From an uncultured Candidatus Saccharibacteria bacterium (GTDB lineage: Bacteria; Patescibacteriota; Minisyncoccia; Phycocordibacterales; DATDWN01): 64,000 nucleotides of DNA. This document shows positions 3,436 to 53,550 of the stretch, piece by piece. The stretch's first letter is position 1, and every line of letters starts with the position of its first letter. Below the pieces are notes generated by a model. It searched no databases. It worked only from the letters and a program-made list of their open reading frames with translations, and was not told where the DNA came from. A program made the position numbers and the translations under genes. The stretch spans positions 6,523-70,522 of the forward strand of contig CAZNUU010000003.1 of assembly GCA_964576615.1 (NCBI GenBank), in the 5' to 3' direction.

Positions 3436-3493
3436 AAAACACCCCCTCTTTTTTTAGAATAACAAGAGAAATTTTGAGATGCAAATTTTCTTG

Positions 3494-3567
3494 TCCATCC
3501 TCCTGGACTCGAACCAGGGACCCCAGAGGTATAAGCTCTGTGCTCTAACCAACTGAGCTAAGGATGG
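3494..3567 (-). tRNA. tRNA, anticodon loop cuUAUac (anticodon UAU, Ile/AUA) by manual fold
   Basis: 7-bp acceptor CCATCCT/AGGATGG, D-arm GCTC..GAGC, anticodon stem CAGAG/CTCTG, T-arm CCTGG-TTCGAGT-CCAGG, discriminator A; no encoded CCA. Confidence 0.7.
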
Positions 3568-7360: not shown

Positions 7361-7743
7361 GGGGATGACAGGTTTTGACATAAAAAGATACTGCGACGTT
7401 GCAATGCGGAGTTCCAGAAACTCTCAAAACTTCTGGAAAGATTAAGCGTAAAAAACTTATCTAAAAAGGCATCCGTTTCTCCATATTTTGGATCTAACGA
7501 TCTTGTCTTCTCTTACGCTTTAGCTTAAGGGACGGTAACCTCTCTTATTCCTCATGCGAGAGGCCCACCGATATAAACTGAGGATATGACCTTGATTTCC
7601 TCGATCAAGGTCGAAACATAGAGGATCGACTGTAATGTATTTTGTTTGTTCTAAGCCTTACAGTTTAAAACTTAAAACAGACTAGGCATTGTAGATGCGT
7701 TTCAATTCTTTTTATGGATGTGGTTTCGATACCACCATCTCCA
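7361..7743 (+). ncRNA. ssrA: tmRNA (ssrA)
   Basis: 5' GGGGAUGACAGGUUUUGACA and 3' GUGGUUUCGAUACCACCAUCUCCA form tRNA-Ala-like acceptor with G3:U70; internal tag frame ...SNDLVFSYALA-TAA; downstream of smpB. Confidence 0.75.
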
Positions 7744-7750
7744 CAACGAA

Positions 7751-27441: not shown

Positions 27442-27650
27442 GAAAGCCTCCACCGATGAGAATACTTTAAAACCTTAGAATGTCAACAAAACCGCCTTTC
27501 GGCGGCTTTGTTAGATTCTTTAAGAAATTTCAATTTTTGATGCAATGCTAGGCGGACGAGGAAAATAATGTGAGCCTTATCGAGTATAAGGTGAACATTA
27601 TTTTACCGAAGTCCAACAACGCAGTGCGCTAAAATTGGAATTTCTTCTGT

Positions 27651-28844: not shown

Positions 28845-28852
28845 ATAAATGT

Positions 28853-28867
28853 TGTGACTAAGTCACA
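28853..28867. promoter_or_regulatory. 15-bp perfect palindrome TGTGACT-A-AGTCACA in tuf 5' leader, 9 nt from the start codon
   Basis: Read from sequence. Confidence 0.3.
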
Positions 28868-29260
28868 TAAGTTTAAAATTTGGCGAACTCCTTACAGGAG
28901 CTGTACACCTCTCGCATTTTGATTACAAAACGCTCAAGGTCTTGCGAAGCTACGCTTCTCACCTCGTTCCAAAATTAAACATGTTCGTCATCTTAGTGTT
29001 ACTAAGACTCCTTACCTGTTTAATTTCTCACGTCGGATTTCATCCAAATTTTAAACTCAGTGTTAATCTAAAATTATTACTAATAATGCAAACGCCATTT
29101 TGGAAATTCCAAAAACTCAATGTTCGAGAAACCTGAATTCTTAAAACTTCCTAAAACAAAAATCGCAAAAGCGACGAATAATATATTAGACAATATGTAT
29201 TAAATAGTCAACAAGAATGAAAACAGCCCCTCGCCAAGTTGGCGAAGGGCTGAACAAAAA

Positions 29261-29752
29261 CTACGACTGCAGACGGGGCAGGGGCGCTGTCTCGACGAGT
29301 ACCTGGCGAAGATTCGCGAGATACTTTTCGAACTTGCCCGCAAGCATCATCTCCTGCATTGAGGAGCTGATGTACTTGCCCTCGCGAGCGAGCCCGGCGA
29401 TCGCGTCGAGTCGTTCACCGACATCCGCCATCGAGGCGCCCAGCTTGCGCGCCTGGATCAGCTGGGGCACGAAGTAATTGGAAAGTGATCCCTCGACCAT
29501 CTCGGGATGATCGGTCTTCACGAGCCAGATCTGCCCATCGAGGTTTGCGAGGACCGCCGCCGGACTGGAATCCCGGATCGCCCGGACTTCCTTCCCGAGC
29601 TGCGCGTTCTTTCGCTCGAGTCCCCGCATCTCCTCACCCGCCTTGGCGATCGACACCGATAGCCGGTACGTCACGTATCCGGCGCCCGACGCCACCGCAA
29701 GTGCGAGAGATGCCACCACCGCGAGAACCACGAAACTTCTTCTGCTCACCAT
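29261..29752 (-). CDS. Signal-anchored coiled-coil protein (GC-rich cassette)
   Basis: TTGACA-N17-TTTAAT, AGGAGG 6 nt from ATG; terminator hairpin 29226-29253. Confidence 0.55.
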   Translation of the reverse strand: MVSRRSFVVLAVVASLALAVASGAGYVTYRLSVSIAKAGEEMRGLERKNAQLGKEVRAIRDSSPAAVLANLDGQIWLVKTDHPEMVEGSLSNYFVPQLIQARKLGASMADVGERLDAIAGLAREGKYISSSMQEMMLAGKFEKYLANLRQVLVETAPLPRLQS

Positions 29753-29808: not shown

Positions 29809-30126
29809 CTAGATACTTTGGAGCATGAGATCCTCCTTTAAGGCCTGTCTTTCTTCTATCACCAGGGAATCAAAAGTTGGAATTCTTGCCTTTAAAAAAC
29901 TCAAAACTTCGTGAGGAGTAGTTTTGTCCTGACCAAGTAAATTATCCAACTCGTCCTGTTCCCTCTCAGATAAAATATCTAGAGATCTTGTAAGAAGAGC
30001 TTGGTATAAAATTTTACCGATTCTTTCCGCAACCTCTCTTTGTTTTATGGGAGGAAGACCTTCTAGGTTCCACTCCTTAATTATTTCTTTTAAAAGAATC
30101 ATCTTAGATTTTTTATTAGTATCCAA
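29809..30126 (-). CDS. Small acidic protein, paralog of 39385..39684
   Basis: Shared C-terminal motif ...SFL+.+IP.FD.LV.E...LK. Confidence 0.5.
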   Translation of the reverse strand: MDTNKKSKMILLKEIIKEWNLEGLPPIKQREVAERIGKILYQALLTRSLDILSEREQDELDNLLGQDKTTPHEVLSFLKARIPTFDSLVIEERQALKEDLMLQSI

Positions 30127-31352
30127 GCTCTCTCAAAGACTTGCTGTTGTACTGTCTTCGCAAAAAGAAACCCTGCCTTGTATTTTTTATCCAATTTCAC
30201 ATCCGGACCTTTCTTGGTCATTGTTCCCCTTGCAATTTCTACACCGTCACAAGTAATTTTAATTACCACTGTCTCCCCATCCATTTCTTTAATAATTTCT
30301 CCCTTGTGGCCTTCAAACTCAATAGGAATTGTTTCACTTTGTGGTAAAGAAACGACACCTTCCTCATTACCTGCCTTAAACGACTCGGGTTGGTTAATTA
30401 TTGAGGTCGAAACTACTTCTGGTTCTGGAGCTGCCGGCACGGCCTCGTTTACTCTAAGACCACTAAAAGTGCTCGGGGATAGATTCTCAGGTGAGAACAA
30501 ATTAAAATCATGATTTAGTGCGACAGACAAATCGTCTGCACTCCCCTCATCTAGATTGCCCCAAGTCTTTTCAGCTTTAATAATAATTCTTTCAGATCTT
30601 GGTGAACTTCTGACCAGTTCCCGTCTTATCATTTCAATTTCACCCAGATCAAATTCTGGCCCAGGGCCCAGACTCTCTCTCTTATCTCTCCTAGTTCTGT
30701 AATATTCATCCCTAGCTGCTATTAATTCACTTGGCTCATCTTTTTGAGGCATGCTGCGAACACCACCTAGGGATTCCATCAATCTGCGAAAAACATCCTT
30801 GTTTTTTTTAGCATTCTCTAAGTAGGGACCTAGTAATTTAATGTAATTTTCTCTAGCTTTTATTAACTTTCTATCTAGATCGATGGAAGGCTCAGTTTCC
30901 GTGTTCCTGGCAACTACTCCGGGCCTAATCCCGAGAAGTGAGAGTACATCCCTCGTCTCAAGGGGCGTAATCAAAGTGGAGTTGGAGATTATTTTAACTA
31001 CCTCCTCCATAGAAGCCCTGTCTGTAATATCCCAAATTAAATTCTTTACATTTGCTCGGTCGACAGAAATCTTTTTCAAATAATCTAGAACAGGGCCTGG
31101 AGCGGAAAAAGTTGCATCTTTTTTTTCTTTCTGTTCTTTGGGTGGAAGCGGTGCTGGCTCGGAGAATTGTTTTTCAATTTTTTTATCTTGCTCCGTTTCA
31201 AGCGGAGGAAGTTCGGTTGGTTTTGCCATTGCCTCAAACCCAATTATTTTTATTGGGACTCTAGTCTCGTCTAAACCAACGGAGTCAACGACTTCGTCAA
31301 AGGCTGGAGGGTGAATACTTACTTCACTTTCGATTGGAGAAGGACTATTCAT
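30099..31352 (-). CDS. Hypothetical protein (417 aa), local similarity to 36946..39357
   Basis: PSELIAARDEYYRTRR vs PQELVDARSEYFKAKR. Confidence 0.5.
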   Translation of the reverse strand: MNSPSPIESEVSIHPPAFDEVVDSVGLDETRVPIKIIGFEAMAKPTELPPLETEQDKKIEKQFSEPAPLPPKEQKEKKDATFSAPGPVLDYLKKISVDRANVKNLIWDITDRASMEEVVKIISNSTLITPLETRDVLSLLGIRPGVVARNTETEPSIDLDRKLIKARENYIKLLGPYLENAKKNKDVFRRLMESLGGVRSMPQKDEPSELIAARDEYYRTRRDKRESLGPGPEFDLGEIEMIRRELVRSSPRSERIIIKAEKTWGNLDEGSADDLSVALNHDFNLFSPENLSPSTFSGLRVNEAVPAAPEPEVVSTSIINQPESFKAGNEEGVVSLPQSETIPIEFEGHKGEIIKEMDGETVVIKITCDGVEIARGTMTKKGPDVKLDKKYKAGFLFAKTVQQQVFERAWILIKNLR

Positions 31353-31414
31353 CCCCCAATTTTAACTTTTTTGTTTTCTCGGAGCAATTTAAAAAGCGGA
31401 AAAACTGTGTTTTT

Positions 31415-31582
31415 AAAAGCCTTTCGCAGGAGCTTAGAAAATAAACGCAAATTAGATAGCTGAAGGCATTGTTTGAGCGTAGCGAGTTTGCCGAGAAGCT
31501 AAGTCTCATTTGCGCATTATTTTCTTGAGCGACGAGAAGTTCGCTAGGCCAGCAGGCCTAGATAGATTGCTTTTAAAAATAC
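31415..31582 (+). repeat. Copy 1 of ~165-bp repeat (inverted copy at 43800-43968, ~90% identity)
   Basis: Manual alignment, e.g. AAAAGCCTTTCGCAGGAGCTTAGAAAATAAA...CTCATTTGCGCATTATTTTCTTGAGCGACGAGAAGTTCGCTAG shared. Confidence 0.6.
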
Positions 31583-31593
31583 GTTTTTGGAGC

Positions 31594-33735
31594 TTACTTT
31601 CTACTCTCTATTATGGATTTCTCCACGTTAGCTGGCACCACCTCATAGTGATCAAACTCCATCATGACCGATCCGCGACCTTGAGTAAGAGAGCGAATTT
31701 CAGTTGTATATCCAAACATTTCGGAGAGTGGAACTTTAGCATGAATTACTCTTAGCATCCCCCTCTCATCCATTCCTTCTATTTGACCGCGCTTGCCTGA
31801 CAGTGAACCAGTGATATCCCCCATGAACTGCTCTGGCATCACAGCTTCAACTTTCATAATTGGCTCGAGAATAACTGGCTTAGCCCTTTTAGCGGCGTCC
31901 TGGAAAGCTTGGGAGGCAGCGATCTTGTAGGCAATTTCAGATGAGTCCACATCGTGGTAAGAGCCGTAGGTTAAAACAGAGGAAATATTTACCATTGGAT
32001 AGCCTGCGACAATGCCTCGACCCATCGCTTCGTGTATACCTTTTTCTACTGCAGGGATAAATTCCTGAGGTATAACCCCCCCTTTAATTTCATCAATGAA
32101 TTCAAAATCCTCATGGCGATGAACATTTTTGGGAATTTTTGCACCTTCTTTGAGTGCTTCCATAGGTTTAATCGTAATTTTTACATGGCCATATTGACCC
32201 TTACCTCCAGTCTGTTTAATATATTTGTTTTCAGCTTCTGCTGTACCCAAAATTGTTTCCTTGTAAGCAACCTGGGGTTTGCCGACATTTACCTCCACTC
32301 CGAATTCTCTTTTCATTCGATCAACCATAATTTCTAGGTGAAGCTCTCCCATTCCAGAAATAATGGACTCGCCCGTATCAGTGTTTGAGGAAATAACAAA
32401 AGTTGGATCTTCATCTGAAAGTTTTTTGAGAGCCATACCCATTTTTTCCTGATCTGCTTTTGTTTTTGGTTCAACCCGAAGAGACACCACTGGTGCTACG
32501 AATTTAATTGGATCTAGGACAATTGGATTGTTTTCATCACAAAGAGTGTGAGATGTTTTTGCGTTTTTTAATCCAACCGCTGCAGCAATTTCACCCGCAA
32601 AAACTTTTTTAACTTCTTCTCGTTTGTCTGCCTGCAGTCTAACAATTCTTCCCAGTCTTTCCTTCTCGCCGGTAGTTGAGTTGTAAATATATGTGCCAGA
32701 TTCAATTGTGCCGGAGTAAACTCGAAAGAAAGTAAGCTGACCTACGAAAGGATCGTTTTGAAGTTTGAAGGCTAGAGCAGAAAATGGCTCTGTGTCAGAT
32801 GCTTTTCGATATATTTCATCCCCAGTTTTTGGATCAATGCCATGAACGGGAGGAATATCTAGAGGTGAAGGCAGGTAATCAACCACCCCATCAAGCACAA
32901 GTTGAACACCTTTATTTTTTAAAGCAGAACCCGTAAAGACAGGCACAATCTTTACGGCAAGGGTTGCTTTTCTTAGAGTTGCCTTTAATTCATCTAATGT
33001 AGGTTCCTTGCCTTCTAGATAAGCTGCCATCTGCGCATCATCTTGTTCAACTATCTTTTCGATCAATTCCCCACGATATTTTTTAGCTTCTTCCAGATAT
33101 TCTGCAGGAATTTCAGCTTCTTTTATCTGATTTCCCATGTTGCCTTCAAAGTAATAGGCCTTCATTTTGAGAAGGTCGATAACTCCTTCGTGTTTATCTT
33201 CTAGACCAATCGGAATCTGCATCCTGACAGCATTTTTTGTAAGTCTATCTAAAATTGATTGGTATGATCTCTCAAATGATGCGCCAGTTCGGTCGAGTTT
33301 GTTGATAAAGCAAATTCGAGGCACATTGCCATCATCCGCATAGCGCCAGTTGGTTTCTGACTGTGGTTCAACCCCAGCCACACCATCAAAAACCACCACC
33401 GCACCGTCGAGGACTCGAAGTGACCTCTTCACTTCCGCAGTAAAATCAATGTGACCTGGAGTATCAATAATATTGAATCTGTACTCTGGTTTAGCACCCT
33501 TCTCTTTATATGTCGGATTCCAAAAACAAGTAATCGCAGCCGCAGTAATAGTAATGCCTCGCTCTCTTTCTTGCTCCATCCAATCCGTAACAGTCTCACC
33601 CTCGTGCACTTCACCTATCTTGTGAGTCATGCCTGTATAGTAAAGTACTCGCTCGGATGTGGTTGTTTTACCCGCATCAATGTGAGCGATGATTCCGAAA
33701 TTTCTAACTTTTTCTAACGAGTAATCTCTGTTCAT
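31594..33735 (-). CDS. fusA: Elongation factor G
   Basis: [17 protein letters not shown] and EF-G domains. Confidence 0.97.
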
Positions 33736-33837
33736 TTTTTAAAACAAAAAGGCCTTGCGGCAGATAAAACTATATACTAAAAGCTTTTTTGTTGCAATTA
33801 GATGGTCGTAGTGATAGAAATTATCTAGGAGGTACTG

Positions 33838-34092
33838 ATGTTTCACCCAGATGAAGATGTCAACAGTGCAATTGTCCGTCTCATCGATGCCCTGACAAGC
33901 TGGGAACGCTCAACAGGCCGGGAATCATTTCTGGTTTTAGTTCCAGTTGAATCAGAGGAGAGGGTCGTCGTGGTTGACTCTGGCAGACTCATGGATCTGG
34001 AGTCTCTCACAGATGAACTGATCGCTGAACGTGTCTTGCAGGCTCTGGTCTGCCATGACAATCCAGAGGTTCATCGTTTTATCGATGGCTAG
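33838..34092 (+). CDS. Hypothetical acidic small protein (GC-rich cassette)
   Basis: TTGCAA-N17-TAGAAA, AGGAGG 5 nt from ATG; hairpin CTAACAGAGG..CCTTTGTTAG downstream. Confidence 0.5.
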   Translation: MFHPDEDVNSAIVRLIDALTSWERSTGRESFLVLVPVESEERVVVVDSGRLMDLESLTDELIAERVLQALVCHDNPEVHRFIDG

Positions 34093-34125
34093 GGCTCGAC
34101 CTAACAGAGGCCGGGCCTTTGTTAG

Positions 34126-36900
34126 TTATTTTTTATACTTCTCGAGTATTGTTGCTTCTATTTCCGCTCGATTGCCCCCATAAGTTTCGTAAGAAAGTTG
34201 TTTTAATTTCTCAGCTGTGGCAGCATCCCCTTTTGGTGGGAATGGTTCTCTTATATTAAAAGCTTTGCTAGGTATTCCATTAACTAACATTTTTACATAA
34301 GCATTTAGATTCTCGATGTTCATAATATCTTTGGCAGTAAATGTCGGAGAAAATTGTTTTTCCAAATATTCTGCATCCTCGGCACTCACCCGGAAAGAGA
34401 CAATAGAACCAACGTTACCAAAAACAGAATCTTTTATCTTTTCTTCCAATTGAGCGATGAATTGATGAGCAACGGTTAGAGAAAGTTTATATTTCCTAGC
34501 TTCGGATAATATAGAGGATATCGAGTCTGTAGTAATATTTTGAAATTCGTCCATATAAAGATAGAACGCCGGAAAATCTTTACCTACAAGATCGACCCGT
34601 GACAGAGAAGCCATTAGAATTTTACCAACTAGAATAAGACCGATTAGGTTTGCATTTATAGCCCCCAAACGACCCTTGGAAAGGTTAACCAAAAGGATTT
34701 TCCGACCATCCATTATTTCCCGGAAGTTAAAAGAGGATTTTTCCTGCGCAACTATTGGCCGCATAATGTCGTTAGCCAAGAACACATCAAATTTACTAGT
34801 TATGTAAGGGACGATATTGGCTAGTGCGGCATCACCTCCAGCTTTCTCTGCGACCTCCTTCCAAAACTGCACAACTACTGGATTTTTACATTTGGAAATC
34901 TTCAGGTCACGATAAGCTTTATTCGACATCACTCGCGAAACATCTAGGAGGGTATGCCCTGTTTCCGGATCTTCGATTACCAGCATGGTGGCATTTCTAA
35001 AATACTGTTCAAACATTGGACCCATCGATTCCGGTACCGCACCATAAAGTTTTTGGAAGATAGAAAATAGTTCATTTACAACGAAAGTTTTTTGCTCGGG
35101 ATATTTTGGATCATACTCCAGCATGTTTAAGGCCATAGGCCTTTCGGTGTAAGCAGGATCAAAGTAAATAACGTCTTTGTAACGGCTCTCCGGAATATTC
35201 GACAAAATATCAAAAATATCTGTACCATGAGGATCTATAAAACAACAACCATTCCCCCGGTTTATATCCTGGATTATCGAATTTTTTAAAAATACAGTTT
35301 TACCAGTTCCAGTTTGCCCTACCACATACATATGTCTTAAGCGATCTTGGTCCTGAATATATACTTTAGTTTCGGCATTGCGGTAATTATTTACACCCAA
35401 GTAAATACCACTCTCTGACATACCGCTAGGCGCCGGAGCAGAAGTGGCGAGTGATTGTTTAAGCTGAGGCGCCGCCTTGCCAATATGAGTTGCAGGGAAA
35501 TGTAGGCAAGTTGTCATTTCTTCTATGTTCAAAATCATTTGATTTTTTTCGTCAAATGTTCGTAAGGAAAAATTCTCCAAAAAATCTCGCAGGTTACCCT
35601 TCTCCATTTTTTGCCACTCTATTCTATTGCCATGGCCATTCTCAAACTGATTGAAGGCCGACTCAATGTCATTAAGGATCGTCTTAGCTTTTTCTTCAGT
35701 ACTAGAGGAAGCCGCAGCTCTAATGTTTACAGATATAAATGAGCTTTTGATCTTTCTTATAAACTGCTCGATCGCTTTTTGGTCATTGTTTTGGGCTCTT
35801 TTTTCTTTTGCCTCATTTTCCTTTTCTAGTTTCTCTGCACTTTTAAAAATACTTGTTAATTCCTTAAACACACTTGAACCCAAGGAGCGATCGATGTCAG
35901 AGACAGCATCAGAGACTTTTTCTCCCTTCTTTATATTTTCAATTGCATGCTCTGCAGACTTAAATAGATCATCCCTCCTGCCTCCAACTATGAGTTGAAT
36001 TGCTGCACCCTCCCCATCTTTATCTATCTTAGAGAAACTATTTAAAATAACTCCCAGCGGATCAATATTAAATTCTTCGTAAGGTTTTAGTGGATATAAA
36101 AATTGCTTAGAGAGTTTCGCACTTCCAGCGACAGAGACACCTTGTTCGTTAAAAATATTGTAGTCATCTTTGTGTTCCTTTATGAGTGAGCCAGGGAAAA
36201 CCGCTAGAATCTGTTTTTCAAACAATTCTTTTCTTTTAGTAGGAACCGAAACATAAAAAACAAACTGGTCACTGCCATTGGCACAAGCAATTTCCACCGA
36301 AAACCACATCGGATCGTTTTTATCCGAAGAAATAGAGAGCATACCAGAATAAAACTGTTCCATCCCGGAGATTAGCTCTTTTATGTGTTTATTTTTGTCT
36401 TCCTCCGATGCTTCTGGCAGACTTATTTCAAATAAAGTCATGTGCAGCGGCTTCCACAGAAAATCTTTTTCCTTCAAATCGGCTATAGGATAGCCGGATG
36501 CAATAAACTGGACCAGAAAACGGTGAAAATCATCAAATATATGTGGGTCATTCATTTTTTCAATGACACTTAAAACATTTTTTATGCCTTTTTCCTGCAT
36601 TAGGCTGAGAAGTTCGCCCATTTTTACATCGTGTGATTCGGGAGAAAGCTCTAGAGTAATCGCCCCAGCTTCCTTATCGTTCATGACATATTCTTTCTCC
36701 AAAACTTCTTCGTGAGGCAGGCCAGCATAACTTTTAACAACTTCCTTGGCGGCTTGATTAGTAGAAGTTTCTATCCCTCTTTCGCGTAAAATCGTTTCGT
36801 AGTTTATGACTGATTCACGGAGTTTGTTAATCTCTTGTTCCGGACTTGCGACTTTTGGCTGAAATTCCAGACTTGGGTTCATACAGCAATTATATAACAA
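34126..36900 (-). CDS. VirD4/TraG/FtsK-like P-loop ATPase (putative DNA/protein translocase) with ~500-aa N-terminal domain of unknown function
   Basis: Walker A VVGQTGTGKT...IDPHGT, Walker B FYLYMDEF, ARKYKLSLTVAHQ motif. Confidence 0.55.
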   Translation of the reverse strand: MLYNCCMNPSLEFQPKVASPEQEINKLRESVINYETILRERGIETSTNQAAKEVVKSYAGLPHEEVLEKEYVMNDKEAGAITLELSPESHDVKMGELLSLMQEKGIKNVLSVIEKMNDPHIFDDFHRFLVQFIASGYPIADLKEKDFLWKPLHMTLFEISLPEASEEDKNKHIKELISGMEQFYSGMLSISSDKNDPMWFSVEIACANGSDQFVFYVSVPTKRKELFEKQILAVFPGSLIKEHKDDYNIFNEQGVSVAGSAKLSKQFLYPLKPYEEFNIDPLGVILNSFSKIDKDGEGAAIQLIVGGRRDDLFKSAEHAIENIKKGEKVSDAVSDIDRSLGSSVFKELTSIFKSAEKLEKENEAKEKRAQNNDQKAIEQFIRKIKSSFISVNIRAAASSSTEEKAKTILNDIESAFNQFENGHGNRIEWQKMEKGNLRDFLENFSLRTFDEKNQMILNIEEMTTCLHFPATHIGKAAPQLKQSLATSAPAPSGMSESGIYLGVNNYRNAETKVYIQDQDRLRHMYVVGQTGTGKTVFLKNSIIQDINRGNGCCFIDPHGTDIFDILSNIPESRYKDVIYFDPAYTERPMALNMLEYDPKYPEQKTFVVNELFSIFQKLYGAVPESMGPMFEQYFRNATMLVIEDPETGHTLLDVSRVMSNKAYRDLKISKCKNPVVVQFWKEVAEKAGGDAALANIVPYITSKFDVFLANDIMRPIVAQEKSSFNFREIMDGRKILLVNLSKGRLGAINANLIGLILVGKILMASLSRVDLVGKDFPAFYLYMDEFQNITTDSISSILSEARKYKLSLTVAHQFIAQLEEKIKDSVFGNVGSIVSFRVSAEDAEYLEKQFSPTFTAKDIMNIENLNAYVKMLVNGIPSKAFNIREPFPPKGDAATAEKLKQLSYETYGGNRAEIEATILEKYKK

Positions 36901-36901
36901 A

Positions 36902-36927
36902 AAAGCGCTGATGAAAGCGCTTTTTTG
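36902..36927. terminator. Bidirectional hairpin AAAAAGCGCT-gatgaa-AGCGCTTTTTT
   Basis: Between 803-aa gene and ATPase gene; TATAAT follows. Confidence 0.45.
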
Positions 36928-36945
36928 TTATATCTTTTTGTTTAG

Positions 36946-39357
36946 TTAAATTGTGCCTCTCAATACTCGTTCAACAATGGAGCTATTCATTACTTTTCCG
37001 GATTGAACTAGCTCTTGTCCGTGGGCCGAAAGCCAATCAAATATTACTTTGTTATTTTTGACAATACTTGCCACTTGATCTGGACTTAGACCTCTAGCAT
37101 TTAAGAGAGCTTGAGAAATAAGAGATGGATCTTCGACTTTACCAGCAATGTCTATTGCATCACCAATATGGAGAATGTTTGCATCGCCACTAGTAAAGCC
37201 AAGATCTTTAAGTTCAGTTGCGCTCATCTTGTCAAAGATATCTTTGAAAGAATCGATGACATGAGTTCTCGCCCCCTCGTCTAAACCGTTAAGAACACTG
37301 TTAGAGTCAAGGTTACGCTCTATTATTTTCCATGTATTTTCCCCTGCAACTACTCTGTGTAGCGAATGTACATTTGGAAGTACCCCAGTCTCTGGTAAGC
37401 GAGTTGAATCGAGTGGAGGCTTTGGAGTATTTGGGATATTTATGTCCCCTGATCTTGAGGGCTGAACTCTGTGGAAAAGTTTATTGCCAATGAGCCACCC
37501 GGTTGCTCCTCCCGCCGCTGCTGCTATTATTTTACGCAGCATTTTATTTATTCTTTCTCGGTCAACTTCAGATTCAATTACTTCGTTTCTGGAATTTGTT
37601 TCTCGATTTAATTTATCCGCAATTAGAACAGCTACTCCTGGACCAGAGGCATCAATGCCTTCGGCCACTTGTCTTGCTTGAAGGATATCATCCATTCTGA
37701 TTATTGCTTCAGCAATCGCACCCGTGCTATCTCCTGCAGAAAGGAGATCCCTCATTGCAACTCCTCGCTCAACCTGAAGCATTCTTAACCTAGAAGCTTC
37801 TTTTCTTATATCTTCCGGATTGATATTTGATACTGCTCTATCAACTGCATCCGGATTTACGGATCTGCCTATTTGTTTAGCTATTGCTGATACTAAACCT
37901 TTATGCCCAATAAGTTTTGAATACCTCTCCAGACCTGCTTCTGTACCTGTATATGTTCCAACAGACCCCCACACTGCTCTACCTCCCATTACTAGAGGAA
38001 CAGCCACACCTGTCATAGCAGAAGCTACACCTGCACCCCCAAGCAGAGCACCGGTTACCAGTCTGAATCTGCCCATCTGTCGCCACTTTGTCTTCAATTT
38101 CTCAAGTCTGTTTCTTTCAATACCTTCCGTTGAAATTTCATCAACATTTCTCTGTTCTTCCCGAATCAAGTCCAAAGCTCTCCTGGCTAAAAATACACGA
38201 AGCATCTTAGGTTGTTCTTGCCCACCTTCCATTCGAGCTCTTAGGGCTGCTTCCTCCATGCTCAATTCCCGTATCCTATGACGATCGAGTTGAACTTGAT
38301 ATCTATCTCGAAACCCCTCTAGCTCTTTCTTACCTTCTTCACCTCCAAAATCCATTTCTTCTTCACCAAATGACATTAAGCGTTTAAGGAACCCCCCAGC
38401 TTTGCCTCTAATTACATTGCCACGTAACCTTTTGGCCTTGAAATATTCACTTCTTGCATCAACTAACTCCTGAGGATTGAAAATTTCCGGAGTCCTAGTA
38501 GTATCTGGTCCTTCTGGCGGTTGAGGTGGTTCTTCTTGACCTCCTCCGCCACCACCTCCACCTCCGTCACCTCCACCATCAACTGGCCCTTCTCCTCCAT
38601 CTTCTTTATCCTTCCCACTCATTTCTTTTATTTTGCCTTCAACCTCCTTGGCTAAGCGCTCGATAAGATCATGGGAAGCATCTCTCGTATTTGTGTAAGG
38701 CTCACCATTTTTACCTACTGCAAAATCTTTAAGCAAATCAGGGCGATTGACCCAGTCCCCTGGATAATCAGCTGAACTAGTAGAGCCCTTACCGAAGACA
38801 TGCCAGTAAACATCTTCGTGCTCAACATTGCCTTGCCTAGCTTTGTTTAATAAATCTAGAATTCTTTTTTGTTCCGCAATTTGCCTCATTCTCTCTGCAT
38901 TTCTTTCCTGTCGCTCTCTTTCTTTTGCCGCATTTTTCTCTACTACCTCTTCAGCACGAATGTCTTGCTCAGTCTCTTTTGCTAGGTACTCAACAAGATC
39001 ATGGGCAGCGTCCCTGGTAGATTGGTATGCTTCACCGTTTTTGCCCACAGAAAACATTTTCGCCAAGTCAGGTCTCTCAGAAGTAAAATTCCTGTATGCT
39101 TCTTCATACTCAACATTTCCCTGTCTTACTTTATCTAAATAGTTAATCCTCTCTCTTAACTGTTCCAGGCTTAATGTAGGCCTTTCTTCAGCTCCTAAGT
39201 TAAGTTCTTCTCTGGTTTTGGCTGGACCTCTTTTGATTTCGTACTCAATTCCATCGTTGGCTGGAACAATTTTGGCCTTTGGGTTTGGTTTTGGAGAATC
39301 ATCTAAAACTACCAACGGTTCCTCATTTGGTCCGGCATCTGGCTTGAATCTTTCCAT
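36946..39357 (-). CDS. Large hypothetical membrane-associated protein: coiled coil, ~70-aa internal tandem duplication, Gly run, TM region, C-terminal LysM-like segment
   Basis: YLDKVRQGNVEYEEAY...GKNGEAYQSTRDAAHDLVEYLAKE repeated as LLNKARQGNVEHEDVY...GKNGEPYTNTRDASHDLIERLAKE; GGGDGGGGGGGGG. Confidence 0.5.
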   Translation of the reverse strand: MERFKPDAGPNEEPLVVLDDSPKPNPKAKIVPANDGIEYEIKRGPAKTREELNLGAEERPTLSLEQLRERINYLDKVRQGNVEYEEAYRNFTSERPDLAKMFSVGKNGEAYQSTRDAAHDLVEYLAKETEQDIRAEEVVEKNAAKERERQERNAERMRQIAEQKRILDLLNKARQGNVEHEDVYWHVFGKGSTSSADYPGDWVNRPDLLKDFAVGKNGEPYTNTRDASHDLIERLAKEVEGKIKEMSGKDKEDGGEGPVDGGGDGGGGGGGGGQEEPPQPPEGPDTTRTPEIFNPQELVDARSEYFKAKRLRGNVIRGKAGGFLKRLMSFGEEEMDFGGEEGKKELEGFRDRYQVQLDRHRIRELSMEEAALRARMEGGQEQPKMLRVFLARRALDLIREEQRNVDEISTEGIERNRLEKLKTKWRQMGRFRLVTGALLGGAGVASAMTGVAVPLVMGGRAVWGSVGTYTGTEAGLERYSKLIGHKGLVSAIAKQIGRSVNPDAVDRAVSNINPEDIRKEASRLRMLQVERGVAMRDLLSAGDSTGAIAEAIIRMDDILQARQVAEGIDASGPGVAVLIADKLNRETNSRNEVIESEVDRERINKMLRKIIAAAAGGATGWLIGNKLFHRVQPSRSGDINIPNTPKPPLDSTRLPETGVLPNVHSLHRVVAGENTWKIIERNLDSNSVLNGLDEGARTHVIDSFKDIFDKMSATELKDLGFTSGDANILHIGDAIDIAGKVEDPSLISQALLNARGLSPDQVASIVKNNKVIFDWLSAHGQELVQSGKVMNSSIVERVLRGTI

Positions 39358-39384
39358 GGATGTTTTTTATATTTAGATAATAAT

Positions 39385-39684
39385 TTATGCCGCAGGATGA
39401 GCTAGTTCAAGCATTTCCTTCTTGAGCCCCGCAACCGTTTCCGCAACTAAAACATCAAAATTTGGAATCTTATCTCTTAGAAATGAAACTAGGTCAGCAT
39501 CGGAATCTAGAACCTTATCTAACTCCTTTTTGTCCTCGTCCGAAAGATAAGAGAGAGCAGCTAAACTTATCCTACTATGTAAAACTTCTTCCATCTGACC
39601 TATCATTGCGTCTCTTTGTTCCTTTGGCATTTGATCCAGTCCTAATTCTTGCACCAAATTAACATTTAACAAATCTGTAAGCAT
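39385..39684 (-). CDS. Small acidic protein, paralog of 29809..30126
   Basis: Alignable over ~85 aa. Confidence 0.5.
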   Translation of the reverse strand: MLTDLLNVNLVQELGLDQMPKEQRDAMIGQMEEVLHSRISLAALSYLSDEDKKELDKVLDSDADLVSFLRDKIPNFDVLVAETVAGLKKEMLELAHPAA

Positions 39685-39760
39685 ATTATTATTGTTATGA
39701 ATATACCTGAAGTATAAAGCTAGATTAAATCCTGGTAAAGGGAATTGTGGATTATCGATT

Positions 39761-39964
39761 TTATGAAGATTTATTTTTTTCTTTTAGGACTTTTACTTCG
39801 TTTTCAAGATCTTCCAGTCTTTCATGATCCGACTTGTGATGAGTCAGAGCTTTTTGAATAAAAGGCCAAATAAATATACCAATCACAACATCGAAAACTA
39901 CCATTAAAAAAACCTCAAATTCCCAGTGAGCTGGATCTTTTAGTAAGTCAAAAAATGTTTCCAT
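39761..39964 (-). CDS. Small membrane protein (1 TM plus charged coiled-coil tail)
   Basis: 67-aa low-GC ORF heading the locus. Confidence 0.4.
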   Translation of the reverse strand: METFFDLLKDPAHWEFEVFLMVVFDVVIGIFIWPFIQKALTHHKSDHERLEDLENEVKVLKEKNKSS

Positions 39965-40000
39965 ATAAATATTCTATGATAAAATTTTGCTGGAGGCGAC

Positions 40001-40240
40001 ATGCAAAGTGTACGGGAGCTCGTGCCCGATTTGGAAAAATGCGATAAGAACCCGGACCACCCCGGCGCGTTTTACCTGCCCCAGTACAAAACGCTTATAG
40101 AAATCGCGACGGGCCAACCAGTTACGGTGATTACTGCTGACCTGTTCGGCAAGAACCCCGAGTGCGTTTACACTCCGGAGTTGGCCGAGTGGCACCACAT
40201 TTCCAAATTCGAGCTCCCCAGCTCGACTAACACTGCTTAG
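40001..40240 (+). CDS. Hypothetical small protein (GC-rich cassette)
   Basis: GGAGG 4 nt from ATG. Confidence 0.5.
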   Translation: MQSVRELVPDLEKCDKNPDHPGAFYLPQYKTLIEIATGQPVTVITADLFGKNPECVYTPELAEWHHISKFELPSSTNTA

Positions 40241-40292
40241 TCGAGCTTTGTTAGTTAAGTAGAGAGCCCTGGACGAATCCAGGGCTCGAAGA

Positions 40293-40649
40293 CTACGAGG
40301 TTTTGATGCGGTAAATCCCAAAAACTCCCTCACCTCGGTAATCACACGTGAAATCAGCGTGCGTTCCAGAGAGCGCGTCGAGAGCTTCGTGCAACTGTCT
40401 CTCGAAGACTCTCACCGCATCGTTACCTATTTGGACGGAGTGGAAATGAACTGAGTAGATCACTGCCTCAGAGCACCCACACCGGATGAAGTTTAAAACC
40501 TGGCCTAGGGTATGCATCCAATCCTTTATGTTAGAGGTTGGATGGGCACCCGGCAAAACTACAGGTTGACCAACCGGAATCATGGTAACGTCATCACCTT
40601 GAACGATGAACTTCTGACCCTTCGCAGCGACCGGATTTTCATTGCGCAT
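40293..40649 (-). CDS. Hypothetical protein (GC-rich cassette), convergent with 40001..40240
   Basis: TTGACT-N16-TAAGGT; shared hairpin GAGCCCTGGA-cgaa-TCCAGGGCTC 40266-40289. Confidence 0.5.
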   Translation of the reverse strand: MRNENPVAAKGQKFIVQGDDVTMIPVGQPVVLPGAHPTSNIKDWMHTLGQVLNFIRCGCSEAVIYSVHFHSVQIGNDAVRVFERQLHEALDALSGTHADFTCDYRGEGVFGIYRIKTS

Positions 40650-40943
40650 CGTACTTCTCCACGCTTTACGCGCATCACCTGACTCGTGATTGAGTCTAGG
40701 CTAGGAATCTAAAGTCACCTTACAGCTAAATATTAAAAAGTCAAAATCAAAACCCGCTTTCGGCGGCCAGGTGCTATTATATTTATTTTTGCGTGCTAAA
40801 ATCTGAGCAAAATTTTTTGCTCAGAGGATTTTTGCTCAAGGTCGCGTATAAATTTAAAACTGGAGTCGGAGATGTACATTAGTACATTGACGATCCCAGT
40901 TTTAAATTTAGACGTTAGAGATTGAGTAAAAAGACCTGAGCAA

Positions 40944-41414
40944 CTACCAGGCGAAATGAGCGAAAGCTTTATTTGCTTCAGCCATTTTATGAGTATCCTC
41001 TCTCTTCTTTACCGCCTTACCTTCGTTCTTGGATGCCAAGATAATTTCGTCAGCTAGCTTGGATGCCATTGGTTTACCTTTTGCACTACGAGCAGCTTCG
41101 ATAATCCATTTCATAGAAAGTGCAGAGCGTCTTTCTGGTCTAACTTCGCGAGGAATCTGGTAGTTTGCTCCTCCCACTCGTCTAGATCTTACTTCTGTAA
41201 GAGGCCCTGTATTTTTTAGTGCAGCATCTAAAATTTCTAGAGGATTCTCAACTTTTGTTTTATCTTTTACCTCTTCTAGAGCAGAGTATACGATTTTTCT
41301 GGCGGTCTCCTTTTGACCTCGAAGCATTAGATAGTTAATAAACTTACTGATTTTTTCAGAATCGTATTTATAATCTTTCTTTACAATATTTCTGTTAGTA
41401 ACTTTTCTTCGCAT
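40944..41414 (-). CDS. rpsG: 30S ribosomal protein S7
   Basis: Sequence family. Confidence 0.92.
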   Translation of the reverse strand: MRRKVTNRNIVKKDYKYDSEKISKFINYLMLRGQKETARKIVYSALEEVKDKTKVENPLEILDAALKNTGPLTEVRSRRVGGANYQIPREVRPERRSALSMKWIIEAARSAKGKPMASKLADEIILASKNEGKAVKKREDTHKMAEANKAFAHFAW

Positions 41415-41463
41415 GGTTTTGATTAATTTGCTTCGGAATACCTCAGCACAAGTGTTCCCTTAT

Positions 41464-41874
41464 TTATTTCTTAGCTCTTTTTGCACCATAACGTGATCGT
41501 CCCTTCTTTCTGTTTTCAACTCCAGTTGCGTCAAGAACACCTCGTACAATTGTGTATCTGACCCCGACATCTTTTACCTTTCCGCCTCGTAGTAATACCA
41601 CGGAGTGCTCCTGCAAATTATGGCCCATGCCTGGAATGTAGGCTGTAACTTCTTGGCCGTTTGTAAGCCTGACTCTGGCAATCTTTCGAATAGCCGAGTT
41701 AGGTTTCTTGGGAGTCTTTGTGGTTACTTTGGTGCACACACCTCTTTTAAAGGGAGACGGATAAAAAACTGGTCGGTTAGTCAAGGTATTGAAACCACGC
41801 ATAAGAGCCACAGCTTTTGGCTTGGCTTTGAAGATTTTTCTCTTGCGTCTGACCAACTGATTTATAGTAGACAT
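41464..41874 (-). CDS. rpsL: 30S ribosomal protein S12
   Basis: Sequence family. Confidence 0.95.
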
Positions 41875-41929
41875 CGCACGTTACTTTAATATAAGTATTC
41901 AAAAATTGCAATAAAAGAATTGAGCGCAG

Positions 41930-42110
41930 CCTTTTAGCTGCGCTCGGGTATGCCGCGGCCTTTTTAGGCGGTCGAGATTTGGGCTCTGCCAAGGAGGGAC
42001 TTACGAGCCACACTCAGTTGCCTGTCGGCGTTGGGCAGCCGGTTTGATACCGGCCTTTCTCTTGGATCATGCGGGCGCGCGATGAGCCGTGAGATGCTTG
42101 CTTCCATTTA
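41930..42110 (-). other. GC-rich structured leader / candidate sRNA upstream of rpsL: promoter-like TTGCAG-N15-TATATA, hairpins, terminator-like GAGCGCAGC-taaaag-GCTGCGCTC plus T-run before rpsL
   Basis: No convincing ORF (18-codon ATG frame only); GC-rich in AT-rich context. Confidence 0.3.
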
Positions 42111-42216
42111 TAAATATATAACAGTATTAATCGATCTGCAAGAAAAGTTTTCCACCTTTATAAAGAATCACCCAGCAGCTTTTTGAGCGGCTGGGTGACA
42201 GAAGGACCAGGTGAGA

Positions 42217-42774
42217 TCAAGCGGCCAGGAGCAAGCTCCAGGCAAGAGCATTCTCATCCTCCCTGCGTTGACGAGTGAGGGTCGAGAAGTCGTCGAGCAG
42301 ACTCTGTTTCCAGCCCATGAGCTTCACCAGAAGCATCCCGAGGGCCTCGTCGCCAATTTCCGGAAGGCCCGAGAAGGAAACGAGAATCTTGAACCTGCCA
42401 CCGAGCTCAGGAACGTCTGCGTACAAGATGAACGCCCCGCCATATGCCCAACGGCTACGCTCGCGGAACTGCCAGGAGCTGACGACTCTGTGGTCAAGCG
42501 CATGTTCCACCATGAGAGTACTGGCTTTGTGTCCCGATACGATTGAGCGGCGACCGAAGGCGTCCTCCTCCGCAGTGCCAATGTTGGACTTGAAGAATCT
42601 CTGCCAACCCTGAACTCCCTGAGTGGAATCAACCGCATAGAAGAGTTGGAGAACTCCGCCGGTCGCACCATTCGCCTCTTCGCGAAGGACCTCAAGTACT
42701 TTCCTGAGAGCCTCCAGCGCAACCGAAGAGATATTCCCCCACTCACGCTGTGAAAGACGCAGAACTACTGCCAT
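42217..42774 (-). CDS. Hypothetical protein, 185 aa (GC-rich cassette)
   Basis: TTGACT-N16-TAGTCT, GAGGTGA RBS; hairpin CACCCAGC..GCTGGGTG downstream. Confidence 0.55.
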   Translation of the reverse strand: MAVVLRLSQREWGNISSVALEALRKVLEVLREEANGATGGVLQLFYAVDSTQGVQGWQRFFKSNIGTAEEDAFGRRSIVSGHKASTLMVEHALDHRVVSSWQFRERSRWAYGGAFILYADVPELGGRFKILVSFSGLPEIGDEALGMLLVKLMGWKQSLLDDFSTLTRQRREDENALAWSLLLAA

Positions 42775-42845
42775 GTCACCTCACAATCAGATCAAGCTCA
42801 CTGCTTGTCTAAAAATAGACTACTATCGATTATTTAGAAGTCAAA

Positions 42846-43460
42846 TTAGGCAACCAAGCCAGTTATGAGATGAAATTCCCAGCCGACGAGAGGAATGATA
42901 AATTGCCAAAGGAAGAATATAAAAAATATTATGATAAAGATACTATTTCTTTCCAAAAAGTTTCGGATATTTTGCAAGTGGTATGGCAATACCGAGAAAA
43001 GAATCTTGGAACCATCCAAGGGTGGAATGGGAACTAGATTAAACGTAGCTAAAACAAGATTGATGAAAACAATTATGGTGGCAATGTAAACAAAGCCTCC
43101 CCCAAACTGCTGCAATACTCCAAAACGAAGAAGTAAGCCGAAGAAAAGTGCTAGCACTATATTAGATAGTGGCCCAGCAACTGCTACGATGGCTTCACCC
43201 CATCTCTGATTTCTCAAGTTATACGGATTAAAAGGCACGGGCTTTGCCCAACCAATAATAAATCCGCCGAGAAAATAAGACATGACAGGAAGGATAAAAG
43301 AGCCAAACCACTCTAAGTGATTTAAGGGATTTAGATTTAGTCTTCCAGCAAACTTGGCTGTATTGTCGCCTTGATAATATGCCGCATAACCATGAGAGAC
43401 CTCATGGATTATGACTGAGAAAATAAGAATTATTATTGAAAAAATTAAATCAATTTGCAT
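42846..43460 (-). CDS. Site-2 protease family (M50) membrane zinc metalloprotease, short form
   Basis: HEVSHG (HExxH) in TM helix, multiple TMs. Confidence 0.7.
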   Translation of the reverse strand: MQIDLIFSIIILIFSVIIHEVSHGYAAYYQGDNTAKFAGRLNLNPLNHLEWFGSFILPVMSYFLGGFIIGWAKPVPFNPYNLRNQRWGEAIVAVAGPLSNIVLALFFGLLLRFGVLQQFGGGFVYIATIIVFINLVLATFNLVPIPPLDGSKILFSVLPYHLQNIRNFLERNSIFIIIFFIFFLWQFIIPLVGWEFHLITGLVA

Positions 43461-43542
43461 GTATATCTTTCGCTAAGATGTTTTCGAAAACATCTTAGCT
43501 CGATTTGCTAGAGGAACTATTGCATGATAGCATAACTCTGCT

Positions 43543-43785
43543 ATGGCAAAACCTTGCCCAGTTACAAAAAAATCATCTCGCGTAGGCGGTGGCTATTCAA
43601 ACCGAACTCGTGCCACACAGTTTAATCCTACCGGAATGGTTCGAAAGTACCCTAATCTTCAGAAAAAGAAGATCTATATTCCTGAACTCAAAAAATCCAT
43701 CTCTCTAACTCTATCTACTAAAGCGATCAAAACTATTCAAAAGAATGGGGCTTTTAGAACACTCAAAGCTGCTGGAGTAATATAA
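43543..43785 (+). CDS. rpmB: 50S ribosomal protein L28
   Basis: MAKPCPVTKK...NPTGMVRKYPNLQ family. Confidence 0.8.
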   Translation: MAKPCPVTKKSSRVGGGYSNRTRATQFNPTGMVRKYPNLQKKKIYIPELKKSISLTLSTKAIKTIQKNGAFRTLKAAGVI

Positions 43786-43799
43786 CCGTTCGTGATTTC

Positions 43800-43968
43800 T
43801 TTCAAAAAGCAATCTGTCTAGCAAAGCTTTACTAGCGAACTTCTCGTCGCTCAAGAAAATAATGCGCAAATGAGATTGTGCTTTTCGACAAACTCGCTAC
43901 GCTCAAACAATGCCTTCAGCTCTCTCATTTGCTTTTATTTTCTAAGCTCCTGCGAAAGGCTTTTTGAA
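43800..43968 (-). repeat. Copy 2 (inverted) of ~165-bp repeat
   Basis: Reverse complement aligns with 31415-31582. Confidence 0.6.
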
Positions 43969-43983
43969 AGAAATCACTCACTC

Positions 43984-44220
43984 TTACAAATTTGAACGCC
44001 GGCTCGAATGAGCCGGCGTTACGAACTTCTCTGGATACATTTGAATCACTTCCCCAATCAAGGCCAGCATGAGTGAGCCGATGCAAAACATCGCCACCCA
44101 AAACTTGATCTCGATCGGTAGCCCTTTGCCTCTCAGGAGGGCCAAGAGGGTGATTCCGAAAATGATCCAGCAAGCGATTTCCATGCCCATCGCTCGAAAG
44201 AAAATCTCGTTTGCGTCCAT
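43984..44220 (-). CDS. Small membrane protein, 2 TM (GC-rich cassette)
   Basis: TTGACA(44260-44265)-N16-TACTGT, AGGAGG 5 nt from ATG 44220; terminator AACGCCGGCTC..GAGCCGGCGTT. Confidence 0.55.
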   Translation of the reverse strand: MDANEIFFRAMGMEIACWIIFGITLLALLRGKGLPIEIKFWVAMFCIGSLMLALIGEVIQMYPEKFVTPAHSSRRSNL

Positions 44221-53396: not shown

Positions 53397-53550
53397 AGCT
53401 ATATTTTAACATAAACAAGAGTTCTGAATCTTGTTGAGTCATGTTTCGAAAAAAGCCTTGGGAGCGCGACTGGCGCGAGCACGAGGAATTTTCTAGCAAG
53501 AAAATATCCGAGCTTTTTAAGGAATATGACGAGTAACAAATTTGGAACTT

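Follow-up and report, generated by a model that had tools for sequence, protein, structure and literature searches.

Inverted repeats beside fusA and rpmB in a Patescibacteria str region are copies of a dispersed structured element placed at gene ends

Introduction

In a 64-kb stretch of DNA from an uncultured member of the Patescibacteria (assembly GCA_964576615.1, contig CAZNUU010000003.1; hereafter the window, meaning the whole 64,000 nt, whose coordinates are used throughout), two inverted repeats bracket a 12.4-kb segment reaching from fusA to rpmB, and the question raised by this locus is whether such a pair delimits a block that has moved or turned over, or is two copies of something else. 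An initial annotation had offered three options: a repeated small RNA or regulatory element, the ends of an invertible or formerly mobile segment, and recombination scars from a rearrangement of the str operon. We find that the two arms are paralogous copies of a dispersed ~140–200 nt intergenic element (family 2) of Parcubacteria (Patescibacteria, Candidate Phyla Radiation [CPR]), and that the simplest explanation of their inversion is a general rule by which such elements lie antisense at the ends of genes. We regard the identity as a dispersed structured element, together with this placement rule, as highly likely.

The inverted arms and their shared fold

A repeat finder placed the arms at 31410–31579 and 43800–43969 (170 nt, 88% complementary, 12,220 nt apart), and this was the sole long inverted pair within the window. 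Aligning one arm to the other gave exact blocks of 31, 33 and 44 nt, and BLASTN of one arm against the window returned 90% identity over 160 nt (E = 2.6e-56), in good agreement with the ~165-bp, ~90% identical pair first reported. No third sequence-level copy was found in the 64 kb, either by BLASTN of one arm or by an nhmmer profile of both. Positions of open reading frames (ORFs) and of Pfam domains likewise bore out the non-coding nature of the two arms, the left one being flanked by the fusA stop codon (31594–31596) and the start (31352) of an ORF of 417 amino acids (aa), and the right one by the rpmB stop codon (43783–43785) and a G+C-rich hairpin at ~43990–44015. ORFs that start or end inside the arms differ between the two copies and are not equivalent, by which a coding role was rejected. 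Within the arms, neither promoters nor terminators exceeded shuffle expectation, and a scan for intrinsic terminators (G+C-rich stem plus U-tract) found none at either arm, so that this identity was rejected as well.

Going beyond the initial annotation, each arm is itself a long imperfect palindrome, the full elements are slightly longer than the region of mutual similarity (31399–31592 on the plus strand for the left arm, winL; 43785–43980 on the minus strand for the right arm, winR), and four further related or analogous elements lie in the window. Both arms adopt a Y-shaped fold made up of a closing stem (P1), a purine-rich internal-loop module, a long hairpin (P2) and a side hairpin (P3). 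The left arm folds at -65.8 kcal/mol (z -4.5) on the plus strand and at -55.3 on the minus; for the right arm the values are -70.2 kcal/mol on the minus strand and -59.2 on the plus. In the left arm the 5' half of the internal-loop module (GCA-G-GA, 31426–31431, plus) pairs across to GA-C-GA, the 3' half (GACGA, 31531–31535, plus), and P3 (CTAGGCC-AGCA-GGCCTAG, 31544–31561, plus) has CTAGTAAAGCTTTGCTAG as its counterpart in the right arm.

Alignment of the arms shows 39 differences, of which 19 fall in paired columns, and these 19 amount to nine pairs changed on both sides with pairing kept, one G-C pair turned into G.U and no pair broken; all three of the P3 pairs that differ are compensated. 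The outer stem extends past the similarity between the arms, differing in sequence from copy to copy and remaining self-complementary in each.

Dispersed relatives of the arms

Relatives of the arms were found in other Parcubacteria loci (L-numbers label the compared loci or contigs). In L045 a shorter relative comes immediately after fusA and is oriented likewise, and an nhmmer profile of winL, winR and L045 matched L120 (E 1.4e-20), L149 (1e-13), L132 (6e-13), L178 (2e-10; two copies), L153 (2e-6) and L097 (3e-6), all of them metagenomic contigs originally fetched for another purpose. Family 2, defined by this profile, was then defined by a covariance model (R3) built on an alignment of 10 copies (A9); winL and winR score 171.5 and 169.4 bits, values that are not independent since both belong to the R3 training set. 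R3 adds ~18 copies in Parcubacteria loci, including L006 (directly after fusA), L008, L024, L025, L031, L032, L044 (two), L112, L161, L168 and L169. The elements run to ~140–200 nt, with an optional distal extension of 0–110 nt in P2.

Strong covariation accompanies this dispersal. In A9, 94.4% of cells are paired and 22 of the 36 pairs have changed on both sides, a degree of pairing reached by none of 500 shuffles and set against 39–56% in slid controls, though covariance-model alignments are biased towards their own structure. All ten P3 pairs covary across the 10 copies, and the central G-C pair of the internal-loop module is kept in nine of them. The 2x2 loop beside this conserved pair is either tandem G.A or two Watson-Crick pairs, and therefore behaves like part of a continuous helix.

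Within the window itself, R3 with filters off recovered one probable diverged relative at 53435–53537 on the plus strand (34.8 bits, E 1.3e-5; E-values of the covariance models come from a short calibration and are rough), whose P1 and P3 match family 2, whose P2 is replaced by a short hairpin, and which folds at -45.7 kcal/mol (z -4.7). It lies antisense to a 429-aa ORF, 13 nt from its stop codon. Copy counts for the source organism cover the 64-kb window. At the level of exact words, a 22-mer of the arm (GCGCATTATTTTCTTGAGCGAC) had no match in genome contigs or metagenome contigs, a 33-mer had none in viral contigs, and the family patterns were likewise absent from viral contigs.

These results bear on two suggestions of the initial annotation. 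A repeated small RNA or regulatory element came closest among its options, to which we add that what is repeated here is a dispersed structured element whose copies covary strongly. It had also held that many copies genome-wide would indicate a generic intergenic motif, and in related genomes this is effectively the case, with only the diverged third copy in the window.

A second rod family in the same genomes

The regions downstream of fusA in L003 and L004, the two closest relatives, hold a different rod with a core of GA-G-GA / GA-C-GA around a 7-bp apical hairpin. This family 1 consists of ~122-nt rods that are more abundant than family 2, unrelated to it in sequence and present in the same genomes, and it was defined by two covariance models, R1 for the core and R2 for the full length. 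R1 finds copies that follow rpsG, fusA and tuf or precede tuf, at 93.6% pairing and with 17 of 21 pairs compensatory. A scan of metagenome contigs for the exact core pattern yielded 105 loci. Good alignment was obtained for 41 full-length copies (compensatory change in 19 of 28 consensus pairs), and R2 recovered ~20 unseeded copies in 661 kb of metagenomic loci. The termini are conserved as (T)AAAACTTTCAYAATYTGG ... CCARATTTGGAAGTTT, and a search of 2 Mb of loci for distant pairs of such ends, as an autonomous parent element would have, gave nothing convincing.

Three family-1 rods lie in the window. The first, winU (27523–27645, plus; R2 72.2 bits, E 2.8e-14), lies antisense behind tuf at a distance of 5 nt from its stop codon, and in the sense direction a terminator-like hairpin comes next at ~27492–27505; winG (40818–40942, plus; R2 36.9 bits, E 6.7e-6; R1 36.5 bits) is antisense to rpsG, 1 nt from its stop. 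The third, winT (28937–29060, minus; R2 67.4 bits, R1 78.8 bits), is sense within the leader of tuf and includes an optional insert module, GUGAGAAGCG..GCAAGACCUUGAGC..GCGAGAGGUGUACAG..CUGUAAGG, which recurs as the same optional insert in L144, L158, L182, L186 and L187. At tuf (28845–29262, minus) a promoter-like TTGACT-17-TAATAT (29211–29183) follows a strong terminator (29252–29224), and the leader of ~330 nt folds strongly, at -144 kcal/mol as compared with -100.6 for its complement.

We rejected the arms as members of family 1. R2 with filters off matched neither arm at E up to 10, R1 matched none, and Smith-Waterman comparison against 11 family-1 rods stayed below z = 2; the motif expression that had first joined the arms to family 1 was circular, having been devised after seeing them. 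The two families have in common only their architecture, niche, polarity and a G-C-centred purine loop. They do meet physically in L153 (2409–2742), where rods of both families are adjacent in opposite orientation, and some family-1 rods in L091, L108 and L183 are broken up by another rod or by an inserted hairpin; such side-by-side and interrupted rods are reminiscent of the mosaic arrangements of repetitive extragenic palindromic (REP) elements termed BIMEs (from bacterial interspersed mosaic element). In L117, L123, L151 and L167 (e.g., L117 4019–4141), family-1 copies end 9–10 nt before the ATG of a conserved gene beginning MAK.. (..UUUGGAAGUUAUAACAU-AUG), and GGAAG at the 3' end of the rod may serve this gene as ribosome-binding site.

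Placement at gene ends and the 12.4-kb segment

In both families it is at a gene boundary that the folded strand has its 3' end, mostly antisense and 0–15 nt from a stop codon, with a minority of copies sense and just upstream of a start codon. For the 94 family-1 copies with enough flank, 71 have an opposite-strand ORF of at least 100 aa whose stop adjoins the 3' end, at a fixed 36–62 nt from the core and thus 0–10 nt from the end of the rod; another 14 have a same-strand ORF starting just downstream, and in only 7 does the 5' end meet the stop of an ORF on the same strand. The 28 family-2 copies divide into 15 antisense at a stop codon, ~5 sense upstream of a start and 1 sense after a stop. 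Genes that precede family-1 rods are of diverse housekeeping kinds and include dnaE, rpoC, an RNase J-like gene, rpsB, mltG, M23 peptidases, mreB, gyrB, ribonucleotide reductase, pilB, pilC, parB, RNase Y, lepA, secY and ftsX.

All copies in the window fit this pattern, lying antisense after rpsG, fusA, tuf, rpmB and the 429-aa ORF, or sense in the case of the tuf leader. Gene names here rest on a Pfam scan of the window's ORFs, as do the negatives for recombinase, transposase and integrase given below. The left arm adjoins the end of fusA (elongation factor G, 31594–33735, minus; GTP_EFTU, EFG_II, EFG_III, EFG_IV and EFG_C), its folded plus strand antisense to the gene and its 3' end 1–2 nt from the stop codon, while the right arm adjoins the end of rpmB (ribosomal protein L28, 43543–43785, plus; Ribosomal_L28), its folded minus strand antisense to the gene at a gap of 0–6 nt. 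The arms are therefore inverted to each other because fusA is a minus-strand and rpmB a plus-strand gene, each copy being antisense to the gene whose stop codon it adjoins. This rule is the simplest explanation of the inverted pair, and the 12.4 kb between the arms is not a unit. Recombination scars from a str-operon rearrangement, as first proposed, are not supported, the opposite orientation following from the general antisense-at-stop rule.

The same holds for the proposal that the pair forms the ends of an invertible, once-inverted or once-mobile 12.4-kb segment, which we consider very improbable. Its arms are indeed inverted copies with exact blocks of 31–44 nt, in principle enough for occasional homologous recombination, and short-read contigs do break at the repeat: in SRR12313479, the Logan contigs bearing the 417-aa ORF and fusA end within the left arm (L001 1–41, L002 2509–2547), so the repeat fragments short-read assemblies of the host organism. 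The 417-aa and fusA proteins are on record solely on these short contigs, and for the rpmB product no record was found. Such breaks, however, are expected at any repeat longer than the assembler's k-mer. The closest fusA relatives among species-representative genomes are all metagenome-assembled genomes (MAGs) of Patescibacteria/Parcubacteria (Candidatus Zambryskibacteria at 90%, another MAG at 89%), and the order rpmB> <M50 <rpsL <rpsG <fusA is identical, orientation included, in L168 and L004, which have no copy at rpmB. In its present orientation the segment keeps rpsL-rpsG-fusA-tuf collinear, all on the minus strand and in canonical order, with essential genes inside; no recombinase or transposase domain was found among the scanned ORFs, and the placement rule fully explains the orientation.

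The relatives also bear on the rpmB site. After this gene, L168 and L004 have a short spacer and an intrinsic terminator only (GAACGACCGG...CCGGTCGTT in L168, GAACGACGGCCGG...CCGGCCGTT in L004), the homologue of which in the window is the hairpin at ~43990–44015 (AACGCCGGCTC...GAGCCGGCGTT, not assigned a strand); here the right arm intervenes between the rpmB stop codon and this hairpin. With the terminator kept and no copy at rpmB in the relatives, the right arm is an element inserted between the two (or lost in other genomes) and not the end of a rearranged block. Turnover is also seen after fusA, where family 2 occupies the site in the window, L045 and L006, and family-1 subtypes occupy it in L003, L004, L088, L107 and L142.

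Strand, transcription and function

One strand in particular is the one that folds. Among variable pairs, G.U exceeds A.C on the model strand by 46:7 in family 1 and 23:9 in family 2, A.G 1x1 mismatches number 15 on that strand versus 1 on the opposite strand, and folding energy favours the model strand in 16 of 18 rods. Several rods sit between a stop codon and a classic, apparently bidirectional terminator, and no conserved promoter or motif was found upstream of 92 family-1 copies, nor before the antisense copies. Because terminators flank several rods and conserved promoters do not precede them, the element is probably transcribed as its reverse complement at most sites. Transcription in the folded orientation is clear only for the sense copies, in the window the tuf leader with its promoter-like site.

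These observations can be read in more than one way, and our ranking places a REP-, ERIC- (enterobacterial repetitive intergenic consensus) or MITE-like (miniature inverted-repeat transposable element) structured repeat, non-autonomous and duplicative, first; we judge this to be likely. Under this reading the elements would be non-autonomous duplicative repeats gained and lost at gene ends, and at most sites they would be co-transcribed as their reverse complement in 3' untranslated regions (UTRs) or intercistronic spacers, where a stable hairpin beside the stop codon could influence mRNA 3'-end stability or termination. The one-strand folding bias would then point to a single-stranded intermediate (single-stranded DNA [ssDNA] or RNA) or an RNA-level role of that strand. 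Spread of this kind is suggested by the many copies, the conserved family-1 termini with frequent TA flanks, the nested and interrupted copies, the presence or absence of a copy at the rpmB site and the turnover of families after fusA. For mobility and the 3'-UTR mechanism taken together our confidence falls a little short of even, mainly because the folded strand and the strand expected to be transcribed are in conflict.

Several points weigh against this reading. Copies recur after the same genes in different species with structure kept (pilC in L109 and L153, an M23 peptidase in L101 and L157, RNase Y in L115 and L178). This suggests that they are selected where they stand for some function and do not spread in a purely selfish way. 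Among the scanned ORFs there was neither a transposase nor any other gene for mobilisation. TA stands on both sides in about two-thirds of 36 family-1 copies as judged by eye, in an A+T-rich context in which the 3' TA belongs to the stop codon, and the repeats flanking the arms are just 2 nt (GG/GG and TC/TC). In family 2 only the inner P1 (TTTTTAAAAGCC / GCTTTTAAAAA) is alike between copies, and the outer stems vary from copy to copy, unlike conserved terminal repeats. At most sites transcription is expected of the other strand and not of the folded one, and bidirectional terminators part several rods from any antisense promoter; the latter shielding therefore leaves neither an RNA nor a DNA reading fully coherent. 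To these we add that the family-1 metagenomic sample was seeded with a single exact core pattern and that ORFs were called heuristically.

Second in our ranking, and rather unlikely, is that the rods are functional structured RNAs under selection at each locus, acting in cis as a leader when sense (tuf) and, when they converge on the 3' end of a gene, as RNAs that are antisense or bind protein; the tandem G.A loops would be the protein platform. Strong covariation in both families agrees with it, as do the excess of G.U over A.C and the 15:1 ratio of A.G mismatches on one strand, insert modules that are optional and sit at fixed positions, and the recurrence of copies after orthologous genes in different species. 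The clearest case is the tuf-leader copy, which is transcribed folded from a promoter-like site and recurs before tuf in L003, L140, L142, L145, L156 and L170. Elsewhere, however, no conserved promoter was found upstream of antisense copies, several of which a bidirectional terminator shields from antisense transcription; dozens of copies stand behind unrelated housekeeping genes, families replace one another at the same site, presence varies at the rpmB site, and the elements are without an Rfam match.

Comparison with known repeats

Known families do not account for the elements. A scan of the whole window against Rfam (release 15) gave no match to the elements at gathering thresholds, and the two arms and one family-1 copy searched at E up to 10 gave chance-level hits only; full-text literature searches on such repeats or RNA motifs in Patescibacteria/CPR returned nothing relevant.

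Likeness to established intergenic repeats is closest in habit. ERIC elements (also intergenic repeat units [IRUs]; 127-bp imperfect palindromes of enterobacteria) and REP/BIME form hairpins in transcribed intergenic spaces and can affect mRNA stability (PMC2229807), and our elements resemble them in being dispersed, non-coding, imperfectly palindromic and often just downstream of stop codons. REP and ERIC elements can also lie within 15 nt of a stop codon and reportedly affect translation there (Liang, Rudd and Deutscher, 2015). In contrast to ERIC and REP, with which they have no sequence relation, the elements here are 100–200 nt long with purine-rich loops and, in family 2, a three-way architecture, and they show a strong one-strand folding bias, strict polarity to gene ends and a CPR host with a reduced genome. 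A REP/RAYT system (REP-associated tyrosine transposase) does not match either: REPs are 20–40 nt with a GTAG or CGTC tag (PMC3733652), the elements here are 100–200 nt with ends that are AAAC.../...GTTT or copy-specific, and no Y1 transposase was found in the scanned ORFs.

With MITEs such as Correia/NEMIS (Neisseria miniature insertion sequences) and RUP (repeat unit of pneumococcus) the elements share a size of ~100–200 bp, paired termini, TA flanks (often, in family 1), many copies and presence or absence between relatives, the last seen at an orthologous site in that the rpmB 3' region of L168 and L004 lacks the element and keeps the terminator. TA is the insertion target of RUP and Correia, whose RNAs form hairpins (PMC2229807). 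Unlike MITEs, our elements have no cognate transposase among the scanned ORFs, and in family 2 the outer stems differ between copies, with compensatory change; moreover, covariation and G.U bias imply a constraint on a single-stranded fold that DDE-type MITEs do not need.

A third explanation, to which we give a low probability far below the first two, takes the rods as folded ssDNA recombination sites like integron attC, recognised on the strand complementary to coding, with gene cassettes inserted there. What they share with attC is a 100–200 nt imperfect palindrome right after a stop codon, a folded strand complementary to coding, conservation of structure over sequence and conserved unpaired bases, and variable gene blocks do lie directly beyond rods, as with the 924-aa ATPase block found between rpsG and fusA here and between fusA and tuf in L142, L156 and L176. 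Set against these likenesses, the R/L box consensus of attC is absent (nothing of R''/R', RYYYAAC / GTTRRRY, is present beyond AAC...GTT), no integrase was found in the scanned ORFs, the genes followed are core housekeeping genes and not cassette arrays, and the inserted blocks have no rod at their own end. We treat the attC analogy as conceptual only.

Other structured elements were tried and rejected. A retron msr/msd (outer stem, small hairpin, long hairpin, then an ORF) would need an adjacent reverse transcriptase, but the 417-aa ORF has neither a Pfam match nor a YxDD motif, and the right arm has no ORF downstream in that orientation. By inspection, a kink-turn, a hammerhead core (GGAUGA...CGAA), mimicry of the sarcin-ricin loop (CGAGGAG/GACGAG) and domain V of a group II intron (GAGCCGUAC...GUACGGU) all failed on topology or essential nucleotides.

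A bolder possibility, which we hold to be doubtful, is that both rod families form a new class of strand-specific folded gene-end markers with a dedicated function, either protein-bound structured RNAs (through the tandem-G.A loops) or attC-like ssDNA exchange sites. If true, it would account for the polarity, for the retention after the same housekeeping genes across species and for the variable gene blocks in the str operon.

CPR/Patescibacteria genomes of ~1 Mb are thought to be streamlined, yet this lineage holds dozens of copies of at least two structured repeat families, with about one element per 10 kb in the window. Common to both families is an unusual trio of strong compensatory evolution, a single folded strand and strict polarity of the 3' end to a stop or start codon. 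Mobility of the elements would point to an unrecognised polar insertion mechanism in CPR; if functional, they would be an RNA or DNA signal, widespread and so far unannotated, with which core genes end (fusA, tuf, rpsG, rpmB, dnaE, rpoC, gyrB, secY). In practice, such repeats break short-read assemblies and can pass for inversion or transposon ends, as happened in this case.

The surrounding str region

On the minus strand the window reads rpsL, rpsG, a ~7-kb insert, fusA, ORFs of 417, 105 and 163 aa, tuf, rplD, rplB ... secY and map, with type IV pilus genes, comEC, recJ and nusA further along. The insert between rpsG and fusA (33736–40943, ~7 kb) contains small ORFs, an 803-aa ORF without a Pfam match and a 924-aa TraG/TrwB/HerA-like ATPase, a homologue of which (57% identity) lies between fusA and tuf in L142, L156 and L176, indicating that the block occupies different intergenic slots of the same operon. 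No rod was found at the end of the inserted block (33736–34125), which has a small plus-strand ORF and an ordinary hairpin; an 84-aa ORF (33838–34092, plus) follows AGGAGG there, on the opposite strand between fusA and the ATPase gene, and converges on a shared hairpin.

The 417-aa ORF (30099–31352, minus, between fusA and tuf) returned only itself in a k-mer-based search of 5.8 billion proteins, and tblastn gave partial matches of 35–39% upstream of tuf in L140, L142, L145, L156 and L170, as might be expected of a lineage-specific protein that evolves fast. Each str-operon insert has one of a pair of small DUF5663-like paralogues (28% identity, E 2e-11), at 29809–30126 and 39385–39684 on the minus strand. 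Outside this region, the window also has a tRNA-Ile with anticodon TAT at 3493–3567 and a transfer-messenger RNA (112 bits) at 7361–7746, whose tag peptide ends in ...FSYALA.

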